A stretch of DNA of 64,000 bases from Candidatus Kapaibacterium sp. (GTDB lineage: Bacteria > Bacteroidota > Ignavibacteria > Kapaibacteriales > UBA2268). Below are positions 1-45,129 of the stretch, piece after piece. The DNA lies in assembly GCA_026390695.1 (NCBI GenBank), contig JAPLFL010000103.1:8963-72962 (forward strand). Direction: 5' to 3'. The notes below the pieces were generated by a model. It worked only from the letters and a program-made list of their open reading frames with translations. It made no database searches and was not told the origin of the DNA. The translations under genes and the position numbers were made by a program. Within the stretch, counting starts at the first letter, position 1. Every line of letters starts with the position of its first letter.

Positions 1-858
1 TTTGAAGCACTACAAAAGATAACAAAGAAGGATTTTAAAATTACTTATCACAGTATAGATTTATCGTTCTTTCAGAAACTTCAAAATTTCTATATTGACG
101 TGAAAAAGCACAATAATAATAACATTCGTAAAAATCTACAATTTATCAGAGTGTTTCTTCAATGGTCTGAGGATAATGGCATCCAAATAAACCAGTCTTA
201 TCATAAATTCAAACTTAACCGTGAAGAAGAACGGGACATTATTTTCATCACTGAAGAAGAACTACTCAGTATATTCAATTATGATTTTTCTGATAATGAG
301 AGATATGATCATGCAAGGGATTTATTTATTTTGCAGTGTGCTACAGGTCTAAGAATTTCAGATTTGAAACGGATAACAAAGGATAATATCAAAAATGGAT
401 TTATTGAAATCAGACAGCAAAAAACCTCAAATTTTGTTACAATTCCACTGACTCCCTATTCTGAAATTATCCTGAATAAATATGACGTACTCCCTTCAAT
501 CTCTGAAGTAGAGCTCAATAGAACTATTAAGCAAGTCTGCAAAGATTGTGGATTGAATGAGATTATTACGATTAGCAGCAAGTCAGGGAACAAACTGAAT
601 GAAGAAAAATTTGAGAAATGGCAGAAAATAAGTTCCAAAATAGGGCGCTCCACCTTTGCCTCACTCAATTTAGCTAAGGGAGTACCGGAACATATTGTCA
701 AATCTATGACAGGTCATAAGGATTCGAGAGCCTTTGCAAAATATGTAGGAGTCTCAAAACAAATCCAAAAAGAAGCCACTGAAAAAGCGTGGAGAGCTCC
801 CACAGACGATGGAACTATAATTAAGATAATCAAACATCAACATAAAAAAGTTGGTTAA
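1..858 (+). CDS. Tyrosine recombinase/phage integrase, Bacteroidota-type with SAM-like domain; 5' end lies before the window
   Basis: Frame +1 is open from base 1 (FEALQKITKKDFKITY...). Catalytic motifs: GLRISDL (R), RQQKT (K), SSKIGR (HxxR position), MTGHKD (H), FAKYV (Y). Confidence 0.92.
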   Translation, partial: FEALQKITKKDFKITYHSIDLSFFQKLQNFYIDVKKHNNNNIRKNLQFIRVFLQWSEDNGIQINQSYHKFKLNREEERDIIFITEEELLSIFNYDFSDNERYDHARDLFILQCATGLRISDLKRITKDNIKNGFIEIRQQKTSNFVTIPLTPYSEIILNKYDVLPSISEVELNRTIKQVCKDCGLNEIITISSKSGNKLNEEKFEKWQKISSKIGRSTFASLNLAKGVPEHIVKSMTGHKDSRAFAKYVGVSKQIQKEATEKAWRAPTDDGTIIKIIKHQHKKVG

Positions 859-909
859 GTTTTCCAACTTCAATTTTTATATTTATTCATTTTATCAAAG
901 GGATAAACA

Positions 910-1218
910 ATGGAATTTAATCCGAACATTTACAGTATTAGTCGAGAGGAATATTATGAATGCCACCCGACCGCCGCTTCACTGGACATTATTTACCTTG
1001 CCTTAGATTCAATCATTAATCGAATGAGAAAAGAAAATGGTACAATTGGCACAGACGAATTGAAAGTGATGTATATGAGACCTTTACAAGCTATAAAAGA
1101 AACTATTAACAGATTAAGCCATGATATTGAGATAGAAGAACTTAATAATGAGAAACGTTCTTTCTTAGATAGAGGATACACAGATATGAAAGAAAATACT
1201 ATGTTTGAATATAATTAA
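910..1218 (+). CDS. Hypothetical protein (102 aa) downstream of the integrase
   Basis: ATG ORF preceded by AAAGGGA and followed by a terminator; no recognisable motif. Confidence 0.65.
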   Translation: MEFNPNIYSISREEYYECHPTAASLDIIYLALDSIINRMRKENGTIGTDELKVMYMRPLQAIKETINRLSHDIEIEELNNEKRSFLDRGYTDMKENTMFEYN

Positions 1219-1227
1219 TTTATCCAT

Positions 1228-1257
1228 CCGCCTTCAGCAGCACTGAGGGCGGTTTTT
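1228..1257 (+). terminator. Rho-independent terminator
   Basis: CCGCCTTCAG-cagca-CTGAGGGCGG stem (one G-U pair) followed by TTTTT. Confidence 0.8.
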
Positions 1258-1477
1258 AATATCCTACAATGAAATAATAGAATTAGTATTTTAATTACAT
1301 TTTATGAAACTGCTAATATCTCTATTAATATACAAAAATTTATTTGATAAATAAAAAAGTAATTAGTGCAGTAAATAACGGCAGCGTTTACTTTTTTGAA
1401 TGGCGGAAATAGGAATATAAGTTTGCTTATGTTTTTATATTGAAAATATATTTTTGTTTTATTCATTGAGGTTTTAT

Positions 1478-1678
1478 ATGACAAACACGCTCCACACAGA
1501 AAAGGAAATGTTATCCTTCAAAGAATTCCTGACATACACAGGATATTCCAAACACCAAGCCTACAAATTAACATCTACCGGACGGATTAAACATTTTAAG
1601 CCAACTGGAAAAGTTATTTTCTTCAAAAAATCCGATGTTGATGAGTTTTTACAAACTAATCCAAAGGGAGTAAAATAA
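1478..1678 (+). CDS. Excisionase/AlpA-like HTH_17 DNA-binding protein
   Basis: MLSFKEFLTYTGYSKHQAYKLTSTGRIKHFKPTGKVIFFKKSDVDEFL matches the Bacteroidota excisionase pattern. The ATG at 1478 follows GAGG. Confidence 0.8.
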   Translation: MTNTLHTEKEMLSFKEFLTYTGYSKHQAYKLTSTGRIKHFKPTGKVIFFKKSDVDEFLQTNPKGVK

Positions 1679-1977
1679 TGGAAAATAGACAAGTATTTGT
1701 AGGCATATCTATTGATGAACTTAGTAACGTAATCCGTAATGAAGTTCAATCAGTAATGAATGAATTAATTCCAAAATCACAATCTAAAGTTATTAATCCA
1801 CCTGAAGCCGATTTGATCAATGCTAAAGAAGCTCAAAAGATTCTTAATTGTTCTTTTGGTACTTTGGTTAATTATCGGAAATCCGGTAAACTACAAGCTC
1901 GGAGATTTGGACGGAAATTATTTTTCTCGAAATCGGAAATCCTCAAAAGTTTGGAAAATAAGTTTGGAGTGATTTAG
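1678..1977 (+). CDS. HTH_17 (MerR-like) DNA-binding protein
   Basis: LINAKEAQKILNCSFGTLVNYRKSGKLQARRFGRKLFFSKSEI, preceded by the N-terminal 'IDELSNVIRNEV' helix typical of this family in integrative elements. Confidence 0.8.
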   Translation: MENRQVFVGISIDELSNVIRNEVQSVMNELIPKSQSKVINPPEADLINAKEAQKILNCSFGTLVNYRKSGKLQARRFGRKLFFSKSEILKSLENKFGVI

Positions 1978-2162
1978 TGGAGACAGACAATAGTAAATCG
2001 AACAAGCGTAATAAGCTGCTAAATGGCAAATATCCTCAGATCATAGAACATGGCAAGAAATATGCCTGTTATCCTGAAAGAACGTCCATTAATGGCAGAT
2101 TTAGCAGCTTAAAGAACTACGGCAGACGTAAACCCGTAACAGTCAGGAAAAGGCGGTTATGA
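1977..2162 (+). CDS. Small basic hypothetical protein
   Basis: GTG ORF overlapping both neighbours, consistent with translational coupling; no motif. Confidence 0.4.
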   Translation: METDNSKSNKRNKLLNGKYPQIIEHGKKYACYPERTSINGRFSSLKNYGRRKPVTVRKRRL

Positions 2163-2989
2163 TGGAAAAAGAAGAAGTTAAGTATTTTAATTTTCCTATT
2201 CAGTTACTCAGTGGATTTTTAGAGGATAGTAAAACAGCATTATATAATATTTTAACCTATGGAATTTATTCCTTTGCAGTTGATTATAATGAGGCAGAAA
2301 CCATTGAGAAAAAAATTAAGGCAAGTACAGATTATCATAATGTAAAACTTGGCAATATTCCGAACACAATAAAGCTCGGAAAAGATCTGTACGACAAATT
2401 TCATAAGGGGAGTCCAATGAGTGGAATAGAGTTGAAAGTATTCTGGACTTATTATGACGAGTATAAAGATGAGACTTTGCCTAAGAAGTCCGATTTTGAA
2501 AAGGTCTGTCTATTAGGATTCTTAGCTTTAAAATCAATACTTGGTGAAAAACCTTATTGCCATGTTTTTAATGATTATTGGCTTGCACGTATGGACGGAA
2601 AAGTAAAAAGAATATACGATGTTAATGAACTATCAGAAAAAATCAGACCTTATCACTCTGAAAGAAATCCAAGAAAAATAAAAACGGAACTGGCAGCAAA
2701 ATGGAATTTGAAACACTATTCCAAAAAAGGAATGAGAGGATTCTATGTAAGTTTAGAGCCCAAAATGACCACTAAAGATTTAATTAAGCAAGTAATGATT
2801 AGGAAAAATAAATCTATACTTGAAAAAAAGATGGGTAACAATCAGATCAAAAAGTATGAAGAAGAAATTTTGCAAGAATTAAATTTCATGCCAACGATCA
2901 AACAATCATCATCAAACAAAAACCAGTCAGTAGCTCCACCGGAAATTAATGATATTTCTTTTCCTGACTGGAATGATCCTTTTGCATAA
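2159..2989 (+). CDS. Hypothetical protein, candidate replication initiator of the element
   Basis: 276-aa ORF (KYFNFPIQLL...ALKSILG.KPYC...WNLKHYS...RGFYVS) located just upstream of the iteron cluster. The function is inferred from position only. Confidence 0.6.
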   Translation: MMEKEEVKYFNFPIQLLSGFLEDSKTALYNILTYGIYSFAVDYNEAETIEKKIKASTDYHNVKLGNIPNTIKLGKDLYDKFHKGSPMSGIELKVFWTYYDEYKDETLPKKSDFEKVCLLGFLALKSILGEKPYCHVFNDYWLARMDGKVKRIYDVNELSEKIRPYHSERNPRKIKTELAAKWNLKHYSKKGMRGFYVSLEPKMTTKDLIKQVMIRKNKSILEKKMGNNQIKKYEEEILQELNFMPTIKQSSSNKNQSVAPPEINDISFPDWNDPFA

Positions 2990-3038
2990 TCAAAAAAATC
3001 AAATCAAATTATTTATTCAAATTTAAGAAAGTTTTAAA

Positions 3039-3287
3039 ATGGAATTAAGTGAACAAGCCAAAGCAGCAAAAAGGCAATATGCCAAAGAATGGAGACGAAA
3101 CAATCCTGAAAAAGTGAAAGAATATTCCAATAGATTTTGGGAACGTCGAGCCGAAAATTTTTCCATTGAGCAAAAAGCAAGGAATTTAAAAGCCGATGGA
3201 ATGACTCAAAGAGAAATTTCTAAGGCTCTAAATATTTCACTTGGACTTGTAAATAAGTACGTGAACAAGCGTGAACATGAATATTGA
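3039..3287 (+). CDS. Small protein with C-terminal helix-turn-helix
   Basis: GMTQREISKALNISLGLVNKY HTH, with a basic N-terminus (RQYAKEWRRNNPEKVKEY). Confidence 0.75.
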   Translation: MELSEQAKAAKRQYAKEWRRNNPEKVKEYSNRFWERRAENFSIEQKARNLKADGMTQREISKALNISLGLVNKYVNKREHEY

Positions 3288-3462
3288 TTTGTCGAACAAG
3301 CGTCGAACAAGTTGTCGAACTATATAAAGCGTCGAACAAGTTGTCGTTAGTAGTGTCGTTAGTAGTGTCGTTAGTAGTGTCGAACTATATAAATCTTATT
3401 CTTATAAATATTATCTTATAAATATTATCTTATACACTTGTTCAATTTTAAAAAAATTGAAC
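3261..3462. repeat. Iteron-like direct repeats, AT-rich repeats and a hairpin: putative replication origin
   Basis: GTCG cores at 3291, 3302, 3314, 3331, 3343, 3355, 3367 and 3379. GTCGTTAGTAGT x3, CTTATAAATATTAT x2, and the hairpin GTTCAATTTT-aaa-AAAATTGAAC (3440-3462). Confidence 0.7.
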
Positions 3463-3520
3463 GTGTGAGTTTTTTTAGAAATGAATTTGAAATCTATTTT
3501 GCAATTAATCAGAGGATAAA

Positions 3521-3943
3521 ATGAAATACTCAAAAGCAATCACTGAATCAATAGTGATGGAACTGAGACAAGGAAATGGCAGAGTAAGAACCTGTAAAGC
3601 AGTTGGAATTACTCACGAAACTTTTATGAATTGGATTACAAAATATTCCGAGTTTTCCGACACTATAAAAAAAGCAGAGAAAGCCGGTATTATGTTAAAG
3701 AAAGAAGAAGCCGAACAATGTATCCGAGAGGCACAAAAAAAGCAATGGCAAGCCGCCGCTTGGTTTTTAGAGCGTAAATTTCCAAAAGAGTACGGACGTA
3801 AAGAAAATATTGAGATGCACGGAAATATGAAGAACGATATAAAAATGAATATGCCAATATTATCACCTGTACCACAAACTGAAGAAGAAATGGAACTGAA
3901 AGATAGATTACTGGTATTGATGGAAAAAAATAGAAATAACTAA
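3521..3943 (+). CDS. Terminase small subunit-like protein
   Basis: N-terminal HTH (CKAVGITHETFMNW), then SEFSDTIKKAE, WQAAAWFLERKFPKEYGRK and the C-terminal strand IEMHG. This is the pattern of phage DNA-packaging small subunits. Confidence 0.65.
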   Translation: MKYSKAITESIVMELRQGNGRVRTCKAVGITHETFMNWITKYSEFSDTIKKAEKAGIMLKKEEAEQCIREAQKKQWQAAAWFLERKFPKEYGRKENIEMHGNMKNDIKMNMPILSPVPQTEEEMELKDRLLVLMEKNRNN

Positions 3944-3952
3944 TTTAAGGAA

Positions 3953-4339
3953 ATGATCATGCAAAAAGAATCACAAAACACACAGATAATCACAAATAGA
4001 AAAATATTCATTGACAATGCTGAATTAATCAATAGTACAGTATTGCAAATTATTTCAGAACATGATGGAAATAGAATGCCAAGTCTGAAGGAAATTTCCG
4101 AACGAACGGGACTTCATATAAACACAGTATCTAAGCACTACAAGAAATTAAAATTTGAGCCGAAAATAAGTCCGGTACGTTCATTATCTCCAATAGTGAT
4201 TTACAATATTTTCAACCTCACGAAAACAAGCGTCTCTGCCTGTGCTCTGTGGTTTAAAATCATAGAAGGGTGGGTGGAACGTGCTGAAGTTGAACATTCA
4301 GGAACTATTGTTGTACAATTGCCAAAAGAATTAGAATAG
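3953..4339 (+). CDS. HTH protein with TerS-like C-terminus
   Basis: PSLKEISERTGLHINTVSKHY HTH; ends WVERAEVEHSGTIVVQLP, where EVEHSG is typical of TerS oligomerisation strands. Confidence 0.55.
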   Translation: MIMQKESQNTQIITNRKIFIDNAELINSTVLQIISEHDGNRMPSLKEISERTGLHINTVSKHYKKLKFEPKISPVRSLSPIVIYNIFNLTKTSVSACALWFKIIEGWVERAEVEHSGTIVVQLPKELE

Positions 4340-4350
4340 GGAGCTATTTT

Positions 4351-4710
4351 CTATGAGTTCACTATTTTTATTAATTTTTTTTGTTCTTCAGACAAAGAAC
4401 TATACAGTTCCTCAGCTGAGTATTTTTTACCATCAGAATCAACACCACTTTGCATTTTTTTTGCAAAGCTGTAATCAGATTGGTTAATAATTTCAAAATA
4501 CTCTTTTAAGGATATACCTAATGTTTTTGGGTCAGTAATCGGAATTGAACTTTGCATTTTGTCTGCAAAACTGTAATCTGATTTGATCATCATTTCTTGC
4601 ATGGTTAATAATTTACCTTCAGGTTCTTTCATTCCACCTTGCATTTTATCGGCAAAACTATAATTCTTTTCGCTTGCCTGTATTCTTTTTCTCTGTTCTT
4701 CAGTTAGCAT
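4351..4710 (-). CDS. Hypothetical protein with three (S)DYSFA(D/K)KMQ repeats
   Basis: NYSFADKMQ, SDYSFADKMQ and SDYSFAKKMQ within 119 aa; convergent with the TerS-like genes. Confidence 0.7.
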   Translation of the reverse strand: MLTEEQRKRIQASEKNYSFADKMQGGMKEPEGKLLTMQEMMIKSDYSFADKMQSSIPITDPKTLGISLKEYFEIINQSDYSFAKKMQSGVDSDGKKYSAEELYSSLSEEQKKLIKIVNS

Positions 4711-5027
4711 AATTTTTCTTTCAGTTATTCAGTACCTCTTAACAACTGGACTGTCATTATTTGACGGTCTTATAGTTTTTTTATTTGAAATCCTTCAAAC
4801 ATGGCTCCCTATGCTGCTAATGAGTGCCTTACACAAATACGTTTTAACGTACTTTTATGCTGCAAGGCATAATTAGCACCCTTAACCATATATTAAATAT
4901 GAATTTAGCAGCTTAAAACCCTTCACTAAGAAGTGAAATTAAGATGAGAAATTCAATCATTAATTTTCATCAATTAGGTTTGACAACTGATCATAAATCA
5001 GACCTAAAAAATATCTAAAATAGTTCA

Positions 5028-5048
5028 TTCCGTTCTATTTCCGTTCTA
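5028..5048. promoter_or_regulatory. Putative integrase arm-type binding sites
   Basis: TTCCGTTCTA at 5028 and 5039 (11-bp period), about 60 bp from the tmRNA 3' end. Confidence 0.45.
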
Positions 5049-5105
5049 ATCTGTTTTTACGTACCTGAAAAAGCAGAGCCAGTGCAGGAAATAATTTTTG
5101 TCAAG

Positions 5106-5467
5106 TGGAGATGGCGGGAGTCGAACCCGCGTCCAAAGTGCCTCTTTCGTAGCTTCTACATGTTTATTTGATCTATAATTTCCCGCCTTCGATTCTGCCG
5201 ATCAACAGGCACTCGAACGCTAACAAGTGTGATTTCTCAAAGCAAGTCCACCCGTGAAACTTACTCCCAGCCTATCTTAAAGCGACACCTCAGTCAAAAC
5301 CGATAGGTAAACCCTGCCTGAGATGTGGCCGGTAAACTTAATTAAGCAGCCATTGCATAGTTATAGTTGTCATTTTTTGTATCAGCAGTTGAATTTACGT
5401 GCGCCACCGCTTAAGCACGACATGCCACTTACGACCTCGTCCACCCTGTCGAAGCCATTTCATCCCC
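5106..5467 (-). ncRNA. ssrA: tmRNA (SsrA)
   Basis: The minus strand starts GGGGATGAAATGGCTTCGAC and ends GGACGCGGGTTCGACTCCCGCCATCTCCA. The internal tag ORF ends in YAMAA-TAA. Confidence 0.97.
5342..5386 (-). other. tmRNA tag reading frame, (A)ADTKNDNYNYAMAA*
   Basis: GCT GAT ACA AAA AAT GAC AAC TAT AAC TAT GCA ATG GCT GCT TAA. The resume codon is inferred from the upstream TCAACT. Confidence 0.75.
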
Positions 5468-5713
5468 GAATGAGTTGAAAGTTTATAAAGTTCATAAAGT
5501 TTATGGTTGATTTTTATTAATTTATGAGTTTATTTATTTCAATTCAAAATGGATATTTTATTCCTTGTTTGAAACTTAAAAACATGATGAGAGACAATTA
5601 GTAGGCCTACTGTAGCTCAGGCATACTTGTCAATATAATTTCTCAATTTCAAAAGGATTTAATATATTAATTTTAACAACTTTCAAAGAACTAATATCTA
5701 TAAACGAATCTTA

Positions 5714-6499
5714 TTAAAATTTATTTTTAATATGCCACATTATTTTTTCAATTCTTTTTATCATTGAGCGTTTTATTCGGCTGTTCGATTTCCTTGTACT
5801 TTCTAAAATCATGGGATAATCCGAATCAGGATATAAATTTTCCAATCCTTTACCAAATTGTGAAGGATCTCGAAATGCTTTTAAGCCGTATTTTTTTGTT
5901 AATAAACTAAATATTGATAAATCATGTCGATGCTCAATAAATTCCGGATATTCTTCAAGTCCACAAGAATTTAATTTATCGGTAATTATCCTTTCATCAC
6001 ATGCAAAATTCAGGAATTCATTTATGAATCTTGTCGAGAAATCAGTTTTTTTTATCAAATTATATCCGGCTAATCTTTGAAAAGATTCTGTATATTTTGG
6101 TTCATCGCAATCCATCAGTACAAGGGCATCTCGTTTTGTATATTGCTTTTCCATAAATCTGAGTTCGAAAGGAATAATATCCTGTTTTTCTCTTTTCTGC
6201 AATTCTATCAGTGGATCAATCGAATTTACAAAAATCGATCCTGAATCTGCATAAAACAAATAATCAGCTTCACCGATTAAATCCAATGCTTTTCTGATAA
6301 TGTATGGCTTCCACAGCCAATAACCTCCACCACGTGAATAACCTAAAATCTTTTTATTCTTTTCTTTAAATTCGGAATCAATATCATCAGGTGAATATTC
6401 AATAACTTTATCAAATCCAGCGATCTCATATCCGGTTGTAGTATTTAATTGCTGAGCTTTAGTAAAATTTTTATCAGAATAATTTATCAGTAATTTCAT
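5714..6499 (-). CDS. Glycosyltransferase-like protein
   Basis: RGGGYWLWKPYII, FYADSG (DxD-like) and EHRHDLSIFSLL motifs. Confidence 0.6.
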   Translation of the reverse strand: MKLLINYSDKNFTKAQQLNTTTGYEIAGFDKVIEYSPDDIDSEFKEKNKKILGYSRGGGYWLWKPYIIRKALDLIGEADYLFYADSGSIFVNSIDPLIELQKREKQDIIPFELRFMEKQYTKRDALVLMDCDEPKYTESFQRLAGYNLIKKTDFSTRFINEFLNFACDERIITDKLNSCGLEEYPEFIEHRHDLSIFSLLTKKYGLKAFRDPSQFGKGLENLYPDSDYPMILESTRKSNSRIKRSMIKRIEKIMWHIKNKF

Positions 6500-6644
6500 A
6501 ATTATTAATTAGTATTAGATTTATACGACAACTTACAAGCTTCTGTTCGGAACTGTATTGAGTATGCTTCTAACTTGCTAAAGTTTAGTACAAAAATATT
6601 TTTCCATTATTTATCATTAACCTTTAACCATGCATAATTGACAA

Positions 6645-8021
6645 TCATTTCTTAAGTATAATAAATTCCGTTCTCCGGTTTTGAGCTCTTCCTTCATCAA
6701 GTTTGTTATCAGCTATCGGTTGCTTTTCACCAAAGCCTTTTGAACTTATTCTTGCAGCGGAAATACCTTTATTAACAAGATATTTTTTAACAGCATCGGC
6801 TCTTCGCTGTGAAAGTCTCATATTATATTCTTCATCAGGAGAATTATTTACATTATCAGTATGACCACGAAGCTCGACTTCCATATTAGGATATGATTTC
6901 ATTAGGACAAAGAAATTATCTAATATCGGATTGCTCTCTTTGCTAAGATTTGCCTTATCAAATTCAAATACAACCGGTAATAAACAAACAGTTCCGATAT
7001 CCGGTAAATTATTATAATTTGCGATGGCAATTATTGTTGTATCGGGATAGCAGAATTTCAATGTCAGAGTATGAATCCCAAACTCCTCCGGGCGATATTC
7101 TATCTGGTAATAAGTTCTTAATCGAAAGTAAATATCATCAAACATCTTTGGAAATTCTTCTGTTCTGTAAATATGACGATAAACCCCGCCGCTTGCCAAT
7201 GCAAATTGATTCATATAACCATAATTGATTCCATCACAGAAATCAACTGCATTTATTGATACATTCTTTATAATAGCAAGTTTAATAACAGAATCCTTTT
7301 GAACCGTGGAACTGTTATCAAAGCCATCAGTAAATACAACAACTGCTTTTGTGATTCCTGCAGGCACAGCATCTAACGAATTAATTCCTTCAATTATTCC
7401 ATTTGATATTGCGGTCATTCCACCATAATTTTCCAGACCATTTTTTTGAAATCCGGTTTTAAGTTCATTCTGATTCTGAGTTGCTTTCAACTCAGTTACG
7501 ATATGGTTATCATATTTGATAATTGAATAATAGTCTCTCGGATATTTTTTTTCGATCAATGCTCCAATGGCTTTCTGAACCTCATTAGCACGCCATTGAC
7601 CCATCGACCCGCTATGATCCAAAACGAAGGCAACAGCAATTGTCTGCTCTTCTGCATCAGATTCGCGTAAAATATAATTATTGATTTCCTTTGATTTGCC
7701 ATTAAATTCATCAAAAAATCCGCACCAATTTTTTTTAAAACCTTTACCAGCTGCATCGCTCAGATAGTATTTATTGGAATCCGTCAGATGAACTCTCACC
7801 TTTATCTTCATTGGCTCATGGCTGATAATCTGACTAAGCTCAATCCCCGGTGCTTTCTCTTTACCACTGAATGGAATACTTGTATAAATAAAAGTTGGAT
7901 TATAATCTTTAGGTGGAACTGCATCATTGGTGATTTCGGTCTCACTCTTCTCTTGTAAAAAGCTGCATGAATTTATTAAAAAGGTAGCGCATAAAAGCAG
8001 GATAGTCTTAGTTTTTAACAT
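6645..8021 (-). CDS. VWA-domain plus OmpA-family peptidoglycan-binding lipoprotein
   Basis: Lipobox (INSC), MIDAS DHSGSM, VFTDG, and C-terminal OmpA motifs FEFDKA..GHTD..YNMRLSQRRADAV..GRAQNRRTEF. Confidence 0.88.
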   Translation of the reverse strand: MLKTKTILLLCATFLINSCSFLQEKSETEITNDAVPPKDYNPTFIYTSIPFSGKEKAPGIELSQIISHEPMKIKVRVHLTDSNKYYLSDAAGKGFKKNWCGFFDEFNGKSKEINNYILRESDAEEQTIAVAFVLDHSGSMGQWRANEVQKAIGALIEKKYPRDYYSIIKYDNHIVTELKATQNQNELKTGFQKNGLENYGGMTAISNGIIEGINSLDAVPAGITKAVVVFTDGFDNSSTVQKDSVIKLAIIKNVSINAVDFCDGINYGYMNQFALASGGVYRHIYRTEEFPKMFDDIYFRLRTYYQIEYRPEEFGIHTLTLKFCYPDTTIIAIANYNNLPDIGTVCLLPVVFEFDKANLSKESNPILDNFFVLMKSYPNMEVELRGHTDNVNNSPDEEYNMRLSQRRADAVKKYLVNKGISAARISSKGFGEKQPIADNKLDEGRAQNRRTEFIILKK

Positions 8022-8205
8022 ATATTTTCCAAAAATATTTCATAAGTTCAAAGATTATTAATAATTATTAAATAAACAATCATAAAACGATTATTACATC
8101 TAATTATTTTCTTCTTATGATGTGTTCTAATAAAAAATCAACAATAATAAGAATAATAATCTGTTTTTTTCGTCTAACTAATAAATTAATCAAAATTGAG
8201 GATAT

Positions 8206-8883
8206 ATGAAAAATACATTTTATTATATTTTGATAGCATCTTGCTTTTTAAATATCCATGCAATTGCATGGAATGATCAGACCCATATTTCCGTTGGTAA
8301 AGCTGCCGGATTTAAATTAGCTTATAATCTTGCCGCTCCAGATGTAGCCAAACTCAAAGCTAAAAATATTGAAGCCTTTAATCATTATGTCGATGTTCCT
8401 AAATTTGCAATAATCACAGCAGATATTGTCCGAAAGCAAATTGAAAATTACAATTCTCCTACCGATAGCACCGGTCATCTTTATGGAGCCATTGTTGTTG
8501 CTGTCCGGGACTATATCCGCGAATCAAAACAGGGAAAAAGCGGGCGTTACAATCTTTGTTATGCCGGACATTATATCGGGGATTTGTCAATGCCATTGCA
8601 TAATATGGATTATAATGAGTTCAATAAAAAAAATCATTTCAGCAATGACGATATTATTGAAAGCGAAATTAGTGATAACCTTGATAAAATAATAATAACT
8701 GAAATCAAAATTGAAAACGAGGATGATTTGATAAATGCGATTGTAGAAATTGCCAATGAATCAAGAAATTTGGCGTACAAGCTGGAAGGCGAGCAAAGAA
8801 ATATGACTAAAGAAGAAGCGTACTGGCGGATTTCAAGATCATCAAGCCTGTTCAAAGCTGTATTAAAATTTGTTGGTTTTTAA
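8206..8883 (+). CDS. Secreted zinc-dependent S1/P1 nuclease or phospholipase C-family protein
   Basis: Signal peptide, then mature W-N-D-Q-T-H, APD, NHY and GHYIGDLSMPLH zinc ligands. Confidence 0.75.
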   Translation: MKNTFYYILIASCFLNIHAIAWNDQTHISVGKAAGFKLAYNLAAPDVAKLKAKNIEAFNHYVDVPKFAIITADIVRKQIENYNSPTDSTGHLYGAIVVAVRDYIRESKQGKSGRYNLCYAGHYIGDLSMPLHNMDYNEFNKKNHFSNDDIIESEISDNLDKIIITEIKIENEDDLINAIVEIANESRNLAYKLEGEQRNMTKEEAYWRISRSSSLFKAVLKFVGF

Positions 8884-9034
8884 ATTTTGAATATATTAAA
8901 AATTAATAAAATCAATTACTGAAACTATTACATTGGCTCTATAATAAGTCCAAATTACAGCCATTCCAAAACTGATGAAAAATCCAGAAGAGGCTGCTGT
9001 ACTGGATTCTATTTCTTTTCTTTTGAGAAGGTAT

Positions 9035-9201
9035 AAGATCGTTTCCTACTTGAAAGCTGTCATTTGTGCGTATGCAGGAATCCTCTTCCATGGCGCAATT
9101 GGGGATTCCTGCATTCGCAGGAATGACAAGAAAAGGTAGTTTTCACACTGTCTCATGCGCGGGAATGACAATAATTCCTAATTCATTAAGGAAATGATAT
9201 A
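9035..9201. repeat. Composite MITE/REP locus: outer TA-ended MITE, REP doublet and a GAG-type right end
   Basis: Ends ATCGTTTCCTACTTGAA and TTCATTAAGGAAATGATATA. GGATTCCTGCATTCGCAGGAATGAC inside; CACACTGTCTC|ATGC junction at 9154. Confidence 0.85.
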
Positions 9202-9324
9202 ATCAAGCAAGGGTGAAATAATAAAAGTTTTGATTATATTGCGAAAAATTATTAACTTTGTAACTTAATATTAAATACTGGGAAAAAAGAAAAAAATATT
9301 TCCGATAAATAAAAGGATCATTTT

Positions 9325-10872
9325 ATGAAGTTATTTTTTATTTTAATTATTGTTTCTTCCTTTTTGATTAGTTCTTGTGTTGGAATATTTGCAACTCATG
9401 ATCAGAAGCTCGTGATTACAACTAATAATCCTTCTGCAGCTGTTTATGTGGACAGCACAAATGTTGGTAATGGAGACAAAGTCGAAGCTATCGTTGAGAG
9501 GGACAGACATGAAAAACAATTTATGATGGTATCCGACAGCACGAAACCATTATACCAAGTTGCCATACCTACAAAAACTCATTGGCTTTATTATTTGGAT
9601 TTTCCCTGGATTGTTACAATAATTGGGATTTATGTTCCAATGTTTGACGGCATGATTTCTAAATGCAATGTCTTTAAAGAAAATTGGAGTTTAGACATAC
9701 CGTATATGTATCGTTTTTGGGATTCATCAACGAAAAAAGTGTACATAGATAATGTTTGCCTCGACATTAAAAAAGGTAAAAGTAAGTTAAAATCATTCAC
9801 TTATAATGATTATCTAAAAAATGATGATCCAATCGAGACAAAAGACCTTGATAGTTTGGTAATTAAACACTCGAATTTAGATGAACATCTGGAAGAGATA
9901 ATGAAAAAAACTTATTTTCAGGATTCTGTTCCGAGCGTTTTTATTGATAATATTAACACCTATTACTTTAAAGCTGTTGTGAAAAATGTAAATATAAATG
10001 ATGTCGCTGATAATTACATGGTTATTAAGGGGTATCGTGCTGGTGCTGAGTTTATGTATATGGATATGGAATGTAAGTGGATAGTTGAAGATACTTATGG
10101 AGATACAGTTTATGTTGATTCAATAGCTTCAAAATCTGGTCAAATTGGCACTCATCTTAATAAATGGTCAGCCGCTGTAAAACTGGCTATGGAAGATGCT
10201 CTCGAAACATCTTTGATAAAATTTATGGAAACTACGGCTGTTAAAGAGTTACTTAAAAAAGATACTTTGAGACATTTGATCTTTGATAAATTAACTATTC
10301 CTAAACCAAGTAAAACACCATCCAATATTGACGATGCAATGAAAGCCACTGTGACAATTAAAATCGGGAAAAATAAAGGGCACGGATCAGGATTTTTCAT
10401 TTCAAATGACGGTTATATAATTACAAATCATCATGTGGCAAATAAAAAATTGAAATTAACTGTAATCACTTCTGAAGGAACAGAATATGAAGCCAAGCTT
10501 ATTCGTTCAAATAAAGTCATTGATCTGGCCATACTAAAAATTGAAGGAAAATCTGAATTCGCATATAATATTCCGGCAGAAAAGAATTTCAAAACCGGAC
10601 AGGAAATATTTGCTATTGGTACTCCCAAATCTATCGAATTGGGGCAATCAATTTCAAAAGGAATTATCTCAAGTTTAAGAAAAAATAAAGATTTGAATTT
10701 CCTGCAAATTGATGCAAGCATCAATCGCGGCAATAGTGGCGGTCCGATAACCAATACTAATGGAGATTTATTAGGTGTTGTAGAATCAAAATTATTTGGA
10801 GTTGGGACGGAAGGAATTTCATTTTCAATCCCTGCTTTTGATATAATGAATTCATTATCAATTTCTTATTAG
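9325..10872 (+). CDS. Lipoprotein with C-terminal trypsin-like (S1C) serine protease domain
   Basis: Lipobox ISSC; GSGFFIS, TNHHV (H), DLAILKI (D) and INRGNSGGP (S); no PDZ domain. Confidence 0.88.
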   Translation: MKLFFILIIVSSFLISSCVGIFATHDQKLVITTNNPSAAVYVDSTNVGNGDKVEAIVERDRHEKQFMMVSDSTKPLYQVAIPTKTHWLYYLDFPWIVTIIGIYVPMFDGMISKCNVFKENWSLDIPYMYRFWDSSTKKVYIDNVCLDIKKGKSKLKSFTYNDYLKNDDPIETKDLDSLVIKHSNLDEHLEEIMKKTYFQDSVPSVFIDNINTYYFKAVVKNVNINDVADNYMVIKGYRAGAEFMYMDMECKWIVEDTYGDTVYVDSIASKSGQIGTHLNKWSAAVKLAMEDALETSLIKFMETTAVKELLKKDTLRHLIFDKLTIPKPSKTPSNIDDAMKATVTIKIGKNKGHGSGFFISNDGYIITNHHVANKKLKLTVITSEGTEYEAKLIRSNKVIDLAILKIEGKSEFAYNIPAEKNFKTGQEIFAIGTPKSIELGQSISKGIISSLRKNKDLNFLQIDASINRGNSGGPITNTNGDLLGVVESKLFGVGTEGISFSIPAFDIMNSLSISY

Positions 10873-11322: not shown

Positions 11323-13344
11323 ATGCAATTATTTATCTATTATTCTATATTTGTGATATTTTCAACTTCTGCTCTGAGTCAGTCGCTTTCTGTATTTAGT
11401 ATAGATACTTCCGCATTCCCTGTAATTAAAGCCAAGTTTTATGCTTTTGATGCAGTAGGAAATCAGATACGTAGCTTATCAGCGTCAGATTTCTTTGTTA
11501 CTGAAAACGGGCAGCCACGAACTGTTTTGGCTGTATCTTGTCCGGCTCCGAAACCACCCGTTGCTTTGTCATCTGTGCTGGTGATGGATCAGTCTGGTTC
11601 TATGTTTGAAGGAACAAAATTAGATGCAATTCATCAGGCTGCTGCAGCTTGGATCAATGCGCTTCCCGGGAAATCGGAATGTGCAATTACATCTTTTGAT
11701 AATTCCAATTATATTATTCAGGATTTTACCACAAGTAAAAGTTTACTTATCCAAAAAGCCGCTACCATCACAGCGAACGGAGGGACTGATTACGATATGG
11801 CGCTGGATATTCCTATGGCTGGTGGTATATGGATGGCAAAAGCAGGGAAATATAAGCGAATCATCGTTATGATGAGCGACGGAGAGCCTAATTTCACACC
11901 TAATACTCAGCAAATCATTAATGATGCACTTTCAAATTCAGTTATAATATATTTTGTGTCACTTGGCTATCCCAGCCTCCAGTGCATGAAAGATATTACA
12001 ACAAAAACCGGGGGACAGTATTTTGAAAAAATTAGTACTGTCGAAGAAGCAAAGCAAGTTTATATGAAAATCATGCAATCTGCAACTGGCAGCGATCCTT
12101 GCGAAATTAGCTGGGTTAGCCAAGTGAATTGTAAGCCAAGTACGATGAATGTAGATGTTAAGGTAAATTCTCTTAATCTGGCTGCTAATGCTGTATATCA
12201 GGCTTCAATCAGTTCTGCTACTCAACTTGAATTTGCACCTTCAACTATTGTCTATAAAAATGTTTTGCCCGGAACAAAGAAGGATACTATTGTCAGGATA
12301 ACGGCGCGTAATGCGGATTTCACGGTTTCGGATATTAAACTTTCCAATTCTTCTGTATTTTCTATTGATAAAAAGAATTTTATTCTGAAGAAAGATTCAA
12401 GCATTGATTTGACTATTAGTTTTGCTCCCACTGACAGCGGCTATTGTATATGTAAGTTCATTTTTGTAAATGATGTGTGTCCTGCAAATTACTATGCCCG
12501 AGGTGGCTTTCCAGGCAAATTTCCAATTATTCATTCGATAAATCTTGTCCAACCAAATGGCGGACAAGTCTTTTTAGCTGGCTCTGATACTGAGATTACT
12601 TGGGATGGCGTGACGCCGCAAGAAAACGTGAAGCTGGAATATAGCATAGACAGTGGTAAAACATGGATATTTATTTCGGACACTGCTTCAGGACTAAGTT
12701 ATATGTGGCATGTTCCGAATACTCCGAGTAATATCTGCTTGGCGCGAGTGACTGCCAAAGCTAATTATGATGATTGTCAAGTTCGGATTGGTAATCAGAT
12801 TTGGATGTGTAAAAATCTTGATGTGGATCATTACCGTAATGGTGATTCAATTCCGCAAGTAACGGACTATAAAGTTTGGGGAACTCTTACAACTGGTGCA
12901 TGGTGCTATTATAATAATTCCGATTCATTAGGAGAAATTTATGGAAAACTTTATAATTGGTATGCTGTTACTGATAAGCGTGGATTAGCTCCTGTTGGAT
13001 GGCATATTTCAAGTGATGCAGACTGGTCAGTATTGCAGAATTATCTTGGTGGTTTGGCAATAGCCGGAGGCAAATTAAAGGAGCAAGGAATAGCCCACTG
13101 GACAGATCCTAATGTTGGTGCGACGGATGACTTTAAATTTACCGCCTTACCCGGTGGTTACAGAAGTAATTATACTGGTAATTTAAATTTTGATAATTTG
13201 ATGCTGAATGCTTACTGGTGGACTTCAACTGGATCAAGTTTTACAAGAGCATGGTCAAGATATTTATCCAATACTTCTTATGAATTGTTTTTTTCTGAAA
13301 TTCTTTATAATTATGGTCTATCAGTTCGTTGCGTTAAAGATTAA
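11323..13344 (+). CDS. Secreted VWA plus Ig-like plus Fib_succ_major (FISUMP) domain protein
   Basis: Signal peptide, MIDAS DQSGSM, MMSDGEP, and the FISUMP motifs IGNQIWMCKNL..YGKLYNWYAV..LAPVGWHI..ALPGGYR..YWWTS..GLSVRCVKD. Confidence 0.88.
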   Translation: MQLFIYYSIFVIFSTSALSQSLSVFSIDTSAFPVIKAKFYAFDAVGNQIRSLSASDFFVTENGQPRTVLAVSCPAPKPPVALSSVLVMDQSGSMFEGTKLDAIHQAAAAWINALPGKSECAITSFDNSNYIIQDFTTSKSLLIQKAATITANGGTDYDMALDIPMAGGIWMAKAGKYKRIIVMMSDGEPNFTPNTQQIINDALSNSVIIYFVSLGYPSLQCMKDITTKTGGQYFEKISTVEEAKQVYMKIMQSATGSDPCEISWVSQVNCKPSTMNVDVKVNSLNLAANAVYQASISSATQLEFAPSTIVYKNVLPGTKKDTIVRITARNADFTVSDIKLSNSSVFSIDKKNFILKKDSSIDLTISFAPTDSGYCICKFIFVNDVCPANYYARGGFPGKFPIIHSINLVQPNGGQVFLAGSDTEITWDGVTPQENVKLEYSIDSGKTWIFISDTASGLSYMWHVPNTPSNICLARVTAKANYDDCQVRIGNQIWMCKNLDVDHYRNGDSIPQVTDYKVWGTLTTGAWCYYNNSDSLGEIYGKLYNWYAVTDKRGLAPVGWHISSDADWSVLQNYLGGLAIAGGKLKEQGIAHWTDPNVGATDDFKFTALPGGYRSNYTGNLNFDNLMLNAYWWTSTGSSFTRAWSRYLSNTSYELFFSEILYNYGLSVRCVKD

Positions 13345-38968: not shown

Positions 38969-39228
38969 AATATCATTTCCTAAATGAATTAGGAATTACT
39001 GCCATTCCCGCGCATGAGCTTGTGTAAAAACTCACAACTTCTATTGAATTGTCATTCCCGCGCATGCGGGAATCCCCATCCAGTACCAATCAGGAGATTC
39101 CTGCATGCGCAGGAATGACAGAAAAAGATAGTTTTTACACAGGCTCGCATGCGGGAATCCCCATCCAGTACCAATCAGGAGATTCCTGCATACACACAAA
39201 TGACAGCCTTCAAGTAGGAAACAATATA
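38969..39228. mobile_element. Complete three-layer nested element: TA-ended MITE > REP doublet > 131-bp GAG...CTC MITE (39016-39146) with a GCAT duplication
   Basis: Inner ends GAGCTTGTGTAAAAACT and AGTTTTTACACAGGCTC (1 mismatch), flanked by GCAT at 39012-15 and 39147-50. Outer ends TATCATTTCCT and AGGAAACAATATA. Confidence 0.88.
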
Positions 39229-42930: not shown

Positions 42931-45129
42931 ATGCAATCTGCTCAACCACTTTGGTACCCATCACCTGATCAAATTAAAAACTCAAACATGACAAAATTCA
43001 TGAATTTTGTCAATGTGAAATTTGATCTGAATTTTTTAGATTATTATAATCTTTACGATTGGTCAATTGATAGAATTGAAGATTTTTGGGTAGCGATTTG
43101 GGAATTTTCTGAAATCATTTATTCGAAATCATATAAAACAGTTTTGGATGATCGGAAAATGCCCGGCTCTAAATGGTTTCAAGGTGCTGAACTAAATTTT
43201 GCTGAGAATCTTTTAAAATATCGAGATGATAGAATTGCTCTTATTTATAATAATGAAAAAAATGAGAGAATTAGCCTTTCATATCGTGAACTTTACGCAC
43301 AGGTTGCCGAATGCGCTGCGGGACTAAAAAAGCTTGGAGTTAGAAAATGTGATAGAGTTGCAGCATTAATTTCTAATATCCCTGAGGCGATTATTGCAAT
43401 GCTTGCCACGACCTCGATTGGTGCAGTTTGGTCATCAACATCGCCGGATTTCGGATTAAGCGGGATTCTTGACCGCTTTGAACAAATCAATCCAAAGGTT
43501 CTGTTTGCAGTGAATGGATATACCTATAACGGAACAGATTTTGATTGCTCAGAAAAAATCGAAGGAATTTGTTCGCAAATTATTAGTTTAGAGAAAATTG
43601 TCATCATTCCGAAAATTCAATCGACAATTGAAAATTTAATTCCTGTTAATTCTGAGAATGCAGGAATCATCAATTGCGAATCTTCTGTCATTCCTGCCAA
43701 TTCAGGAATCTCCTTCCATTCCACCATAGGAGATTCCTGCATTCGAGAGTGTGTGAAAACTCGAAATAATAACGTATCTGTCATTCCCGCGCATGCGGGA
43801 ATTCCCTTCCAGTACCAATCAGGGGATTCCTGCATTCGCAGGAATGACAACGGAGAAGTTACAAATGACACTGAAGATATGGACAGCAAAAGTAAATTTA
43901 TCTTCTGGAATGATTTTATTGATAAAAATGCAGTAGAAATTGAATTTGAACAATTGCCATTTGATCATCCTGTTTATATTATGTATTCATCGGGTACTAC
44001 AGGTGTACCGAAATGTATCGTTCATGGCGCTGGTGGAACTCTGCTTCAGCATTTCAAAGAGCTCAGCCTCCATACTAATCTAACACGGGATGATGTGATT
44101 ACTTATTTTACGACTTGTGGCTGGATGATGTGGAACTGGCTTGTGAGTTCACTAAACAGCGGCGCAACAATTTTTCTATTCGATGGCTCACCTTCATATC
44201 CGAATATAAACATTCTTTGGAAAACAATTGAAGTTGAAAAAATAACAATTTTCGGTACAAGCCCGAAATTCCTGAGTACATGCCAAAAATCAGGTATTAA
44301 GCCTGGAAGAGAATTTGATCTTTCATCATTAAAAACTATCTTATCAACCGGCTCTCCTCTTTCGTCAGATGAATTTCAATGGGTATATTCCGATGTTAAA
44401 ACTGATATTCGCTTATCTTCAATTTCTGGCGGCACGGATATTATCTCGTGCTTTATGTTAGGAAATCCTAATCTTCCGGTTTATTCGGGTGAGATTCAGT
44501 GCCGTGGATTAGGAATGAAAGTCGAATCTTATGACGAAAATGCAGATGGAATTATAGATGTAAAAGGGGAATTAGTTTGCACTGCACCTTTTATTTCGAT
44601 GCCTGTATATTTTTGGAATGACCCTGAAAATAAATTATATTTTAATAGTTACTTCAATGTTTTTACCGATGTTTGGTGCCATGGTGATTTTATTAAAATA
44701 ACTGATAGAGGTGGTGTGATTGTTTATGGTCGTTCTGACGCAACTCTTAACCCTGGTGGCGTGCGTATCGGATCTGCAGAAATTTATAGAGTTATAGAAT
44801 CAATTGAGGAAATAAACGATAGTATAGTCGTGGGAGTCAATCATGATAATGATATTCGGATTGTACTTTTTGTTGTTACCAAATTAGATATTAATTTAAC
44901 TAATGAATTAATTGTTAAAATAAAATCCAAGATAAGGGTAATGCTCACTCCTCGGCATGTTCCTTATATTATAAAGGCAATAAACCAAGTACCAGTGACA
45001 TTCAATGGTAAGAAAGTAGAATTAGCAGTTACAAAAATACTTAATGGTGAACAAGTCAAAAATTTAAGTGCAATTGCTAACCCGGAGTCACTGGCACAGT
45101 TTGTTGATATTATATCGTTTCCTACTTGA
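42931..45129 (+). CDS. Acetoacetyl-CoA synthetase with an in-frame REP-derived insertion
   Basis: WFQGAELNFAENLL, FDHPVYIMYSSGTTGVPKCIVH, TTCGWMMWNW, ISGGTD and GRSDATLNPGGVRIG; about 70 aa of repeat-derived insert. Confidence 0.92.
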   Translation: MQSAQPLWYPSPDQIKNSNMTKFMNFVNVKFDLNFLDYYNLYDWSIDRIEDFWVAIWEFSEIIYSKSYKTVLDDRKMPGSKWFQGAELNFAENLLKYRDDRIALIYNNEKNERISLSYRELYAQVAECAAGLKKLGVRKCDRVAALISNIPEAIIAMLATTSIGAVWSSTSPDFGLSGILDRFEQINPKVLFAVNGYTYNGTDFDCSEKIEGICSQIISLEKIVIIPKIQSTIENLIPVNSENAGIINCESSVIPANSGISFHSTIGDSCIRECVKTRNNNVSVIPAHAGIPFQYQSGDSCIRRNDNGEVTNDTEDMDSKSKFIFWNDFIDKNAVEIEFEQLPFDHPVYIMYSSGTTGVPKCIVHGAGGTLLQHFKELSLHTNLTRDDVITYFTTCGWMMWNWLVSSLNSGATIFLFDGSPSYPNINILWKTIEVEKITIFGTSPKFLSTCQKSGIKPGREFDLSSLKTILSTGSPLSSDEFQWVYSDVKTDIRLSSISGGTDIISCFMLGNPNLPVYSGEIQCRGLGMKVESYDENADGIIDVKGELVCTAPFISMPVYFWNDPENKLYFNSYFNVFTDVWCHGDFIKITDRGGVIVYGRSDATLNPGGVRIGSAEIYRVIESIEEINDSIVVGVNHDNDIRIVLFVVTKLDINLTNELIVKIKSKIRVMLTPRHVPYIIKAINQVPVTFNGKKVELAVTKILNGEQVKNLSAIANPESLAQFVDIISFPT
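43640..43849. repeat. Composite REP/GAG-end locus inside the acetoacetyl-CoA synthetase CDS
   Basis: TGTCATTCCTGCCAATTCAGGAATC, ATTC|GAGAGTGTGTGAAAACT (43745), and a full doublet at 43779-43849. Confidence 0.9.

Follow-up and report, generated by a model that had tools for sequence, protein, structure and literature searches.

Satellites of phages influence both the transfer of genes and resistance to phages, and nearly all that have been characterised are from Proteobacteria and Firmicutes. In gut, soil and marine particle communities, Bacteroidota are dominant. Among phage-inducible chromosomal islands (PICIs) detected with SatelliteFinder, more than 99.9% are in Proteobacteria or Firmicutes, and Bacteroidota are not mentioned (PMC10085698). 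For the Staphylococcus aureus pathogenicity islands (SaPIs), the mechanism by which the island's own small terminase (TerS) works with the large terminase (TerL) of the helper phage is established (PMC6092414, PMC10085698). Much smaller elements are also packaged: PICMI115, a phage-inducible chromosomal minimalist island, or PICMI, of 6,110 bp from Vibrionaceae, was shown experimentally to be packaged as a concatemer of eight copies per head (PMC10803314), and for the virion-encapsidated integrative mobile elements, or VEIMEs, of seawater, with monomers of less than 5 to 16.8 kb, 8–17 copies per head were inferred (PMC9618062). Here, we describe an island at the beginning of a stretch of 64,000 nucleotides (the window) from Candidatus Kapaibacterium sp., of the Ignavibacteria (GenBank assembly GCA_026390695.1, contig JAPLFL010000103.1, positions 8,963–72,962). 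It carries two different TerS genes and no TerL gene, and we estimate the probability that it is a minimalist helper-dependent phage satellite, functionally like PICIs, PICMIs and VEIMEs but not a member of the PICIs, at about 60%. A first-pass annotation, made from the letters of the DNA alone, had pointed to a satellite and knew of none characterised in this lineage; the literature agrees, in that we found no characterised satellite from Flavobacterium or other Bacteroidota, though some VEIMEs integrated in marine bacteria, including Flavobacteria, have been reported without characterisation (PMC9618062).

The window opens inside the integrase gene of the island. Logan contig L001 (9,843 nt, run SRR20698641) extends it by 737 bases upstream, and bases 738–9843 of this contig are 100% identical to window positions 1–9106, with no mismatches. 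On L001, the 18-nt sequence GTGGAGATGGCGGGAGTC occurs as an exact direct repeat at 108–125 and 5842–5859, the latter corresponding to window positions 5105–5122, with a spacing of 5,734. The first copy, attL, lies 612–629 nt upstream of window base 1, outside the window. The repeat is the 3'-terminal 18 nt of the transfer-messenger RNA (tmRNA), the gene of which (ssrA) is on the minus strand, so that its 3' end points toward the island. As this 3' end is duplicated at both edges, the element is fully delimited at 5,734 bp; it is an intact integrative element in the 3' end of ssrA, and its integration restores an intact ssrA. Between attL and the integrase start there are 222 nt, all non-coding. 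The first-pass annotation had named ssrA as the attachment site, asked for a second copy of the tmRNA 3' end upstream and estimated the element at about 5.5–6 kb if it ended just before the integrase, all as now found; structural genes upstream of the integrase, which would have made the island an ordinary prophage, are not there.

In addition to the tandem copies near attR (Table 1), a third exact copy of TTCCGTTCTA lies 123 nt inside attL (L001 249–258). Allowing up to one mismatch, a scan for this sequence gave four matches where 0.61 would be expected by chance, a number reached in one of 200 shuffles; an integrase with an arm-binding domain could plausibly use the copies as arm-type sites. 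The 3'-terminal 30-mer of the tmRNA is identical in genomes of many phyla (GTDB scan) and so says nothing about the host. The tag peptide predicted by ARAGORN is ADTKNDNYNYAMAA; in related loci, the tmRNAs of Flavobacteriia have GE(D/G)NYALAA tags instead. A dispersed intergenic repeat, CACAAATGACAGCCTTCAAGT.GGAAACGAT, is present at window positions 9038–9068 (minus strand), 39195–39225 (plus strand) and about 45124–45140 (minus strand), with GGAATGACAA-type motifs near it at 9070–9180, and again at L001 1–45. This last copy abuts attL, which is probably why L001 ends on that side.

Along the forward strand, the integrase gene is followed by two genes for helix-turn-helix (HTH) proteins, a candidate replication initiator gene (Rep), a block of iterons, two TerS genes and a convergent open reading frame (ORF) that precedes the tmRNA (Table 1). 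The same order had been read at first pass, with all features within a few bases of the positions given here. Among the approximately ten ORFs of the island, comparison with Pfam, PHROGs, NCBIfam and PADLOC identified no large terminase, portal, capsid, tail, lysis, relaxase, primase, helicase or defence family. Only noise came from a tblastn search of the island with 21 proteins encoded in viral loci related to it, comprising 18 ORFs that are TerL or hold its position, one portal and two ORFs of the head region. The absence of large terminase, portal, capsid and tail genes, seen before in only part of the element, thus holds for all of it, and with no structural gene and no TerL the complete element answers to the general description of a satellite.

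Table 1. Features of the island and its integration site (window coordinates).
Feature	Position	Strand	Basis and remarks
Tyrosine integrase (int), 3' 858 nt (285 codons and stop) of a 415-aa gene	1–858	+	Pfam Phage_integrase 2.5e-10; phrog_1 integrase 1.7e-23
orf102, co-oriented with int	910–1218	+	Gene call on L001; no Pfam, PHROG, NCBIfam or PADLOC match
Intrinsic-terminator-like hairpin (1228–1252, 10-bp stem, 7 GC pairs), then T-run	1228–1262	+	Parts int-orf102 from the downstream operon
HTH_17 protein 1, 66 aa, candidate excisionase/AlpA-like regulator	1478–1678	+	PF12728 37.8 bits (cutoff 27); phrog_66 excisionase
HTH_17 protein 2, 99 aa	1678–1977	+	PF12728 38.0 bits (cutoff 27); family F2
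Possible 61-aa basic ORF, GTG start	1977–2162	+	Overlaps the Rep start codon; absent from public gene calls; no family match
Candidate replication initiator Rep, 276 aa, family marker	2159–2989	+	About 50 homologs; position; AlphaFold2 model
orf82, small HTH protein between Rep and iterons, 82 aa	3039–3287	+	HTH_24 26.6 bits (cutoff 21.9); phrog_14214 7e-8
Iteron block, candidate origin, 146 nt	3289–3434	.	Tandem Repeats Finder and repeat search
AT-rich stretch (15–20% GC), candidate DNA-unwinding region and terS promoter/leader region	3380–3520	.	Imperfect palindrome 3435–3467
TerS 1, 140 aa, Sf6 gp1-like	3521–3943	+	PF20901 Sf6_terminase 37 bits (cutoff 27); phrog_4102 1.9e-19
TerS 2, 126–128 aa, unannotated winged-HTH family	3953–4339	+	Gene position in viral contigs; few PHROG matches
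orf119, convergent orphan ORF, 119 aa, cargo candidate	4351–4710	-	No match in Pfam, PHROGs, NCBIfam or PADLOC
Two tandem TTCCGTTCTA copies, candidate integrase arm-type sites	5028–5048	+	All three exact copies lie in non-coding DNA that flanks att
att core, attR copy GTGGAGATGGCGGGAGTC	5105–5122	.	Exact repeat of the tmRNA 3' end
tmRNA gene ssrA, integration target	5103–5467	-	ARAGORN 5105–5467; Rfam RF00023 5103–5467, 169 bits (gathering score 47), full-length

The first of the two small terminases, TerS 1, belongs to the Sf6 type. A profile of the protein and six homologs, with the invariant motif WQAAAWFLER, matches the solved Sf6 gp1 structures 4dyc and 3hef with an E-value of 7.5e-8 and aligns with residues 8–130 of 4dyc, which is near full length. 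Relatives are present in 59 IMG/VR loci, where most overlap or abut a downstream ORF of 390–540 aa; seven of ten such ORFs tested are TerL by Pfam, and in viral loci the partners of the family include TerL proteins of the Terminase_3/3C type as well as of the Terminase_6N/6C type. The Pfam score, the profile alignment and the adjacency to TerL in phages are those of an Sf6-type TerS, and its identity as a small terminase is established by sequence homology; on the island, no TerL follows it. P0054, which is among the closer homologs of TerS 1 (38% identity), is found at the end of a different element, on ENA metagenome contigs L043–L045. There, an AAA_25 helicase-like protein, a 1,714-aa protein, the TerS and an HTH_17 protein are encoded next to tRNA-Lys, with no TerL after the TerS, and these contigs may represent another kind of TerS-only island.

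TerS 2 looked like an orphan in a word-indexed search, but an exhaustive phmmer search gave 190 representative homologs. Direct sequence searches give weak HTH matches, five of 60 family members scanned match TerS PHROGs, and no match was found in GenBank phages. The gene neighbourhood is more informative. Seventeen IMG/VR loci were found; in 14 of the 16 examined, the homolog is immediately upstream of, and often overlaps, an ORF of at least 371 aa. Of ten such downstream ORFs tested, six are TerL by Pfam (five Terminase_3 and one Terminase_6C). The AlphaFold2 model of TerS 2, with a predicted local distance difference test score (pLDDT) of 87, is all-alpha and comprises a long helix at the N terminus, an HTH and two more helices. 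A TerS could have such a predicted fold, but the fold does not by itself identify one. The conserved gene position makes TerS 2 a probable small terminase, which would assign a likely function to an unannotated family of about 190 representative members. The prophage protein 2ao9, at rank 18 of the fold search (E 1.1), was not taken as evidence. In P0136, a large protein (1,224 aa) from the representative library, the HTH region of the TerS 2 family is matched at six separate places, forming a repeated winged-HTH array. Both genes had been called TerS-like at first pass, with the proviso that they might match only transposases or regulators; instead, the match of TerS 1 to 4dyc and 3hef and the TerL adjacency of both families give that label substance.

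The two proteins are not members of one family: hhalign gives a probability of 5%, and they are therefore not detectably homologous beyond the HTH. In the viral loci (17 for TerS 2 and 59 for TerS 1, 76 altogether), the two families never occur together. The island thus has, next to each other and without a TerL, two proteins that fill the TerS slot of phages as alternatives. Such a pair could also be imagined in a phage-interference (defence) island, in which the TerS proteins would mainly be decoys; by poisoning the packaging motors of incoming phages or leading them astray, they would protect the host, and transfer would be secondary or absent. TerS and other packaging-redirecting proteins of satellites do interfere with the packaging of their helpers (SaPI literature, PMC5052747; discussion in PMC9618062), and with two TerS types, a wider range of phages would be open to such interference. 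However, PADLOC detects no known defence system, and the full integration, excision and replication kit has been kept, which argues for selection for mobility. We give a mainly defensive island a low probability; it overlaps with the satellite model and does not exclude it.

The candidate Rep of the first-pass annotation is a real, conserved ORF, but no named family was matched: the approximately 50 homologs, at roughly 40% identity, are all unannotated and none is in Pfam. The AlphaFold2 model (pLDDT 90.8) has an alpha/beta core resembling tandem winged-helix proteins, with a long C-terminal helix. The nearest structures identified by Foldseek in the PDB are ORC, Cdt1, MarR and the staphylococcal plasmid initiator 4pt7, all non-significant (best E 0.027); in BFVD the best match is a viral 'Replication initiator protein', also non-significant (E 4.6e-3, probability 0.99). 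Homology with the Rep proteins of iteron plasmids (Rep_3/RepA class) was found neither in sequence nor as significant structural similarity. A rolling-circle nuclease is unlikely, as the alignment of the family contains no conserved HUH motif.

The iteron block consists of three adjacent arrays, at 3289–3320 (period 11), 3342–3382 (period 12, 100% identity) and 3388–3434 (period 14). Its words are GTCGAAC, present five times (twice as TGTCGAACTATATAAA / GTCGAACTATATAAA), TGTCGTTAGTAG, present 3–3.4 times, and TATAAATATTATCT, present 3.3 times. Together with the AT-rich DNA, these arrays bear out the iteron origin that had been placed after the candidate Rep, and the layout is that of the relatives. 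In most of the 18 related elements described below, Rep is followed by two to three short iterons in tandem, which end in CTATA(A/T)AAAG, then by about 50 nt of AT-rich spacer (TTGTTTTTTTAC...), a further iteron, TATAAAAAG and finally ATATTATAGAAAG-like repeats; the iteron word depends on the sub-lineage (ACACGACC, ACAACACC, ACGACACC, GCAGCACC or GTACAGCATTA). The relatives have their iterons right after the Rep stop codon, whereas in the island the block sits after the extra orf82, which is peculiar to this element within the family. The layout travels with Rep in elements that have no TerS, and therefore it is read as a replication origin rather than a packaging (pac) site. Rep and its surroundings define a new candidate initiator family with an origin layout of its own.

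Homologs of Rep are present in genomes of Flavobacteriia, Chitinophagia, Cytophagia, Saprospiria and Bacteroidia. Where loci were examined, Rep usually has an HTH_17 gene just upstream and a tyrosine integrase gene farther upstream. Islands of the L013, L015, L020 and L026 type are carried by strains of Flavobacterium, Chryseobacterium or Aquimarina. Eighteen further elements are bounded by direct repeats of 13–45 nt from tRNA or tmRNA 3' ends and have the int–HTH_17–Rep backbone in common; relatives measure 4.9, 5.6, 5.8 (three elements), 6.15, 6.2 (two elements), 7.8, 8.8, 9.6, 10.7, 11.4, 12.1, 12.2, 13.3 and 13.5 kb. Family F2, to which HTH_17 protein 2 belongs, is common to 13 related elements. 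Together with the island described here, they form a family across Bacteroidota that has not been described before; its members, at least 19 in number, can serve as a basis for mining more. Just downstream of the origin, most relatives encode a protein of about 99 aa (family F3; carried by L016, L017, L020, L022, L023, L024, L031, L032, L037, L040 and L048), which is absent from the window island. F3 is 36% identical to gp71 of Bacteroides phage BF1-TP2, encoded near the lysogeny module of that phage. It was considered as a hidden TerS and rejected, being DUF5681-like, without similarity to TerS profiles and not beside TerL in BF1-TP2.

Several relatives do encode a TerS-like protein. In L021 (4.9 kb), a member of the TerS 2 family (E 1.6e-20) is the last gene before the att site, and there is no TerL. 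L031, L032 and L035 have a Terminase_2-like gene (phrog_51 at 2e-5) without TerL, and L041, also without TerL, encodes a protein that matches five TerS PHROGs; in L018, GP3_package is matched below the threshold. L031 and L032, from Galbibacter orientalis and Joostella sp. (11.4 and 13.3 kb, in tRNA-Leu), combine the Terminase_2-like TerS with a tape-measure-like protein of 1,100–1,160 aa; lacking TerL, portal and capsid, this gene set is an odd intermediate.

One relative was found as circular DNA. Contig L048 (Logan run SRR24319190, 5,030 nt) has an exact terminal overlap of 30 nt and is therefore a circular assembly of 5,000 bp. Its gene order, F4–Rep–F3–79 aa–175 aa–[attP core at 3082]–int, is a circular permutation of Rep...int, and no TerS is recognisable. 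The sequence GTGGAGCTGGTGGGAGTCG, resembling a tmRNA 3' end, lies between the last ORF and int, at the place expected for attP. L048 could be an excised, plasmid-like or packaged form. The P0042 contigs were rejected as further circular relatives: their 1.7-kb terminal repeat is only 94.8% identical and tRNA-Val is present, which indicates integrated or tandem copies.

As most relatives have no recognisable TerS, the family backbone alone could be a plasmid-like integrative element. The island itself might then excise and replicate by means of Rep and the iterons independently of phages, its TerS-like proteins being HTH regulators or partition-like factors; if it were transferred at all, this would be through vesicles, natural transformation or accidental transduction. 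Such an interpretation is in keeping with the many int–HTH_17–Rep–origin relatives in which no TerS can be recognised, with the 5.0-kb relative of this kind that exists as a circle, and with the nature of the TerS proteins themselves, which are small HTH proteins that both also give weak matches to transposase or regulator HTH domains. It is difficult to reconcile with the full-length match of TerS 1 to a solved small terminase, which includes the oligomerisation region and the WQAAAWFLER motif and not the HTH alone, or with the position of both TerS families directly upstream of TerL in viral contigs. Two different TerS genes on 5.7 kb with about ten ORFs are also hard to explain without a role in packaging. 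We consider a phage-independent element unlikely, and retain the helper-dependent satellite as the preferred reading.

The Rep module is also present in six IMG/VR contigs, three of which (16.7–18.5 kb) add SPP1-type portal, Terminase_2 TerS, TerL and tape-measure genes, and it is thus common to phage-like elements as well. L007, L010 and L011 carry HTH_17–Rep with the portal, a 340-aa head-region protein, TerS and TerL; int is seen only on L010, and a tape-measure homolog on L007 and L010. These may be temperate phages of very small size, or else satellites that form capsids. With their order int–HTH_17–Rep–portal–...–TerS–TerL–tape measure, the IMG/VR contigs raise the question whether the island is a defective prophage, left by a temperate phage with int–HTH_17–Rep that lost everything downstream of terS. 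Its condition suggests otherwise, as the att cores and arm-type repeats are intact on both sides and no trace of a TerL, portal or capsid pseudogene is present. The phage-like relatives have a Terminase_2 TerS, whereas here there is one of the Sf6 type and one of a new family; a deletion would not place side by side two terS genes of families that never co-occur in phages. Furthermore, the 4.9–6.2-kb size class occurs in at least nine independently integrated relatives, at different tRNA or tmRNA genes, and the relative of 5.0 kb is circular. A prophage remnant is therefore very unlikely.

The complete integrase gene is found at L001 348–1595, starting 390 nt upstream of the window; its 415-aa product has Arm-DNA-bind_5 and Phage_integrase domains. 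The catalytic R, R, H and Y are kept, and the first histidine of the HxxR box is replaced by lysine (KIGR, window 634–645); in the integrases of the family, this first catalytic position is His in 16 of 19 and Tyr in two. The HTH_17 proteins match excisionase PHROGs, with HTH_17 protein 1 scoring 25.8 bits against TIGR01764 'excise', under its cutoff of 28.8. No Phage_AlpA or Stl match is reported for these two MerR-superfamily, excisionase-like proteins, and a divergent repressor gene is absent. Arm-DNA-bind_5 integrases and HTH_17 excisionase-like genes are the usual front end of the conjugative transposons and integrative mobilisable elements of Bacteroidota. An NBU/Tn4555-like mobilisable element, moved by a co-resident conjugative element, would share this Bacteroidota-type front end, and one relative of the island carries RteC. 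Nevertheless, no relaxase/MOB, coupling-protein or primase gene is present among the ten ORFs (Pfam, NCBIfam and PHROGs), nor any gene of the oriT type, and the recognisable genes outside the backbone are phage packaging genes, making conjugative mobilisation highly improbable. Scans for the sigma-70 consensus and for the Bacteroidota -7 motif TAnnTTTG showed neither to be enriched over chance. The sole candidate for a cargo gene, orf119, has three internal repeats of about 34 aa with the motif DYSFA(D/K)KMQ and no homolog in the libraries searched.

For a satellite with these components, the following cycle can be proposed. The integrase and one or both HTH_17 proteins would excise the island between the 18-nt cores, with the TTCCGTTCTA copies as arm-type sites. 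Rep would bind the GTCGAAC/GTCGTTAG iterons beside the AT-rich DNA and recruit the replication enzymes of the host, since helicase and primase are not encoded by the island; theta-type or multimer-forming replication would yield multimeric island DNA. Upon infection by, or induction of, a helper phage, rings of the island TerS proteins would recognise island DNA and recruit the TerL of the helper. At 5.7 kb and with no capsid-remodelling gene, the island would need to fill helper heads as a concatemer; by arithmetic, normal-sized capsids of 35–60 kb would hold about 6–10 copies each. Two TerS families may allow two different helper packaging machines to be exploited, or interfered with.

Several observations weigh against this reading. 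The analysis turned up no helper phage, and the window ORFs sampled include nothing phage-like. A circular form of this particular element was not found, and the exact attP junction (...TTTTGTCAA|GTGGAGATGGCGGGAGTC|CGTTTTCAC...) that the first-pass annotation had hoped to see spanned is absent from the IMG/VR and JGI metagenomes. The comparison with an empty site fared no better: the exact attB junction (...CTAAAACC|core|GAACCC...) is absent from the JGI metagenomes, and among GTDB species representatives, neither Rep nor the flanking 458-aa OmpA/VWA protein has a close relative. The lysine at the first catalytic position may mean that integrase activity is reduced or altered. Rep remains a candidate initiator, by virtue of its position and of non-significant fold matches of its model; it has no Pfam or PDB-profile sequence match and none in PLSDB plasmids or GenBank phages (INPHARED). 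The assignment of TerS 2 relies on synteny and a few PHROG matches, the Foldseek comparison of its model with the PDB having returned generic HTH proteins only, and, as stated, most members of the family have no TerS that can be recognised.

In its chromosomal surroundings, the island has two genes for proteins with a VWA domain nearby, one VWA and OmpA lipoprotein-like (6645–8021, minus strand) and one with VWA and Fib_succ_major domains (11323–13344, plus strand), with a trypsin-like protease gene (9325–10872) between them. The GC content of the window is about 32%. Its histidine ammonia-lyase (HutH) is 74–78% identical to homologs in metagenome-assembled genomes (MAGs) of Ignavibacteriaceae and Melioribacter, and also of some Anaerolineales; no synteny of the HutH flanks with Ignavibacteria MAGs was found. 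Other window genes sampled encode a C25 peptidase and a Fib_succ_major protein; both kinds of protein are typical of the FCB (Fibrobacteres–Chlorobi–Bacteroidetes) group. These features tentatively place the host in the FCB group, probably as an Ignavibacteria-like bacterium.

The locus is a concrete, fully delimited satellite candidate with a simple parts list. Should the two-TerS design work as proposed, it would let a minimal element extend the range of its helpers at little cost, and helper phages could be traced with the two small proteins, by way of cognate TerL proteins and pac sites. A more far-reaching version, in which this is the smallest terS-encoding satellite so far and the first recognised satellite family in Bacteroidota/Ignavibacteria, with a new winged-helix/iteron replicon and two unrelated TerS proteins, of families mutually exclusive in phages, that commandeer the large terminases and capsids of two helper lineages, is possible but doubtful, and we offer it tentatively.

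Among described systems, PICMIs are close in scale. Both they and the island are very small (6,110 bp for PICMI115 and 5,734 bp here), with an integrase, an AlpA/excisionase-like HTH protein and a replication protein, and both are without capsid or capsid-remodelling genes; the expected packaging, as concatemers in full-size helper heads, is the same. PICMIs are, however, located next to fis, have a primase-type replication protein and contain no terS or packaging-redirection gene (PMC10803314), while the island is located at ssrA, has a putative winged-helix initiator with iterons and two terS genes, and comes from another phylum; no sequence homology was found. The island is therefore no PICMI, as these are defined by the fis site, Int, AlpA and Prim, the absence of packaging-redirection genes and a Vibrionaceae host. 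The concept of the VEIMEs is the same as that of the island, in that most have tyrosine integrases, some have TerS homologs or a plasmid-like Rep, and none has major capsid genes. They are defined by recovery as concatemers from virions, whereas the island is known here from its genes. The text of PMC9618062, as far as consulted, describes no VEIME with two terS genes or with the Rep family of the island. As in the island, the iteron plasmid initiators (the RepA/RepE/Pi class, and staphylococcal RepA_N, 4pt7) are encoded next to tandem iterons and an AT-rich region, with no helicase encoded by the element; the Rep of the island has a predicted winged-helix-like core of about 200 residues, with undetectable sequence similarity to these initiators and non-significant structural matches.

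With PICIs and SaPIs, the island shares the order int – regulator/xis – rep – origin (iterons and AT-rich DNA) – terS and site-specific integration. PICIs are larger, at approximately 8–18 kb, with a primase/helicase replicase and usually capsid-morphogenesis or packaging-interference genes, which the island does not have; they are regulated by a Stl-type repressor in Gram-positive and by AlpA in Gram-negative hosts, where the island has two HTH_17 proteins. Of the PICI components used by SatelliteFinder (PMC10085698), the integrase and small terminase are present, and the primase-replicase and the capsid-morphogenesis or packaging-interference genes are missing; for the regulation module (homologs of alpA, merR or stl), the two HTH_17 proteins are candidates. 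Two of the five core components (primase-replicase and capsid morphogenesis) being absent, the island is not a member of the PICIs. What stands of the first-pass reading as a PICI-like satellite is the functional analogy in gene order and TerS; the lack of a primase/helicase replicase and a capsid-morphogenesis gene limits it to that. In the literature, we found no described satellite with two unrelated terS genes. SaPIbov5 reportedly has one terS, for pac helpers, and a cos site, for cos helpers. In such dual packaging (PMC5052747), one satellite exploits two classes of helper machinery; the island instead has two unrelated terS genes. As a functional analogy to these systems, the evidence supports a new satellite-like family, characterised in silico, in a new lineage and with an unusual double-TerS design.

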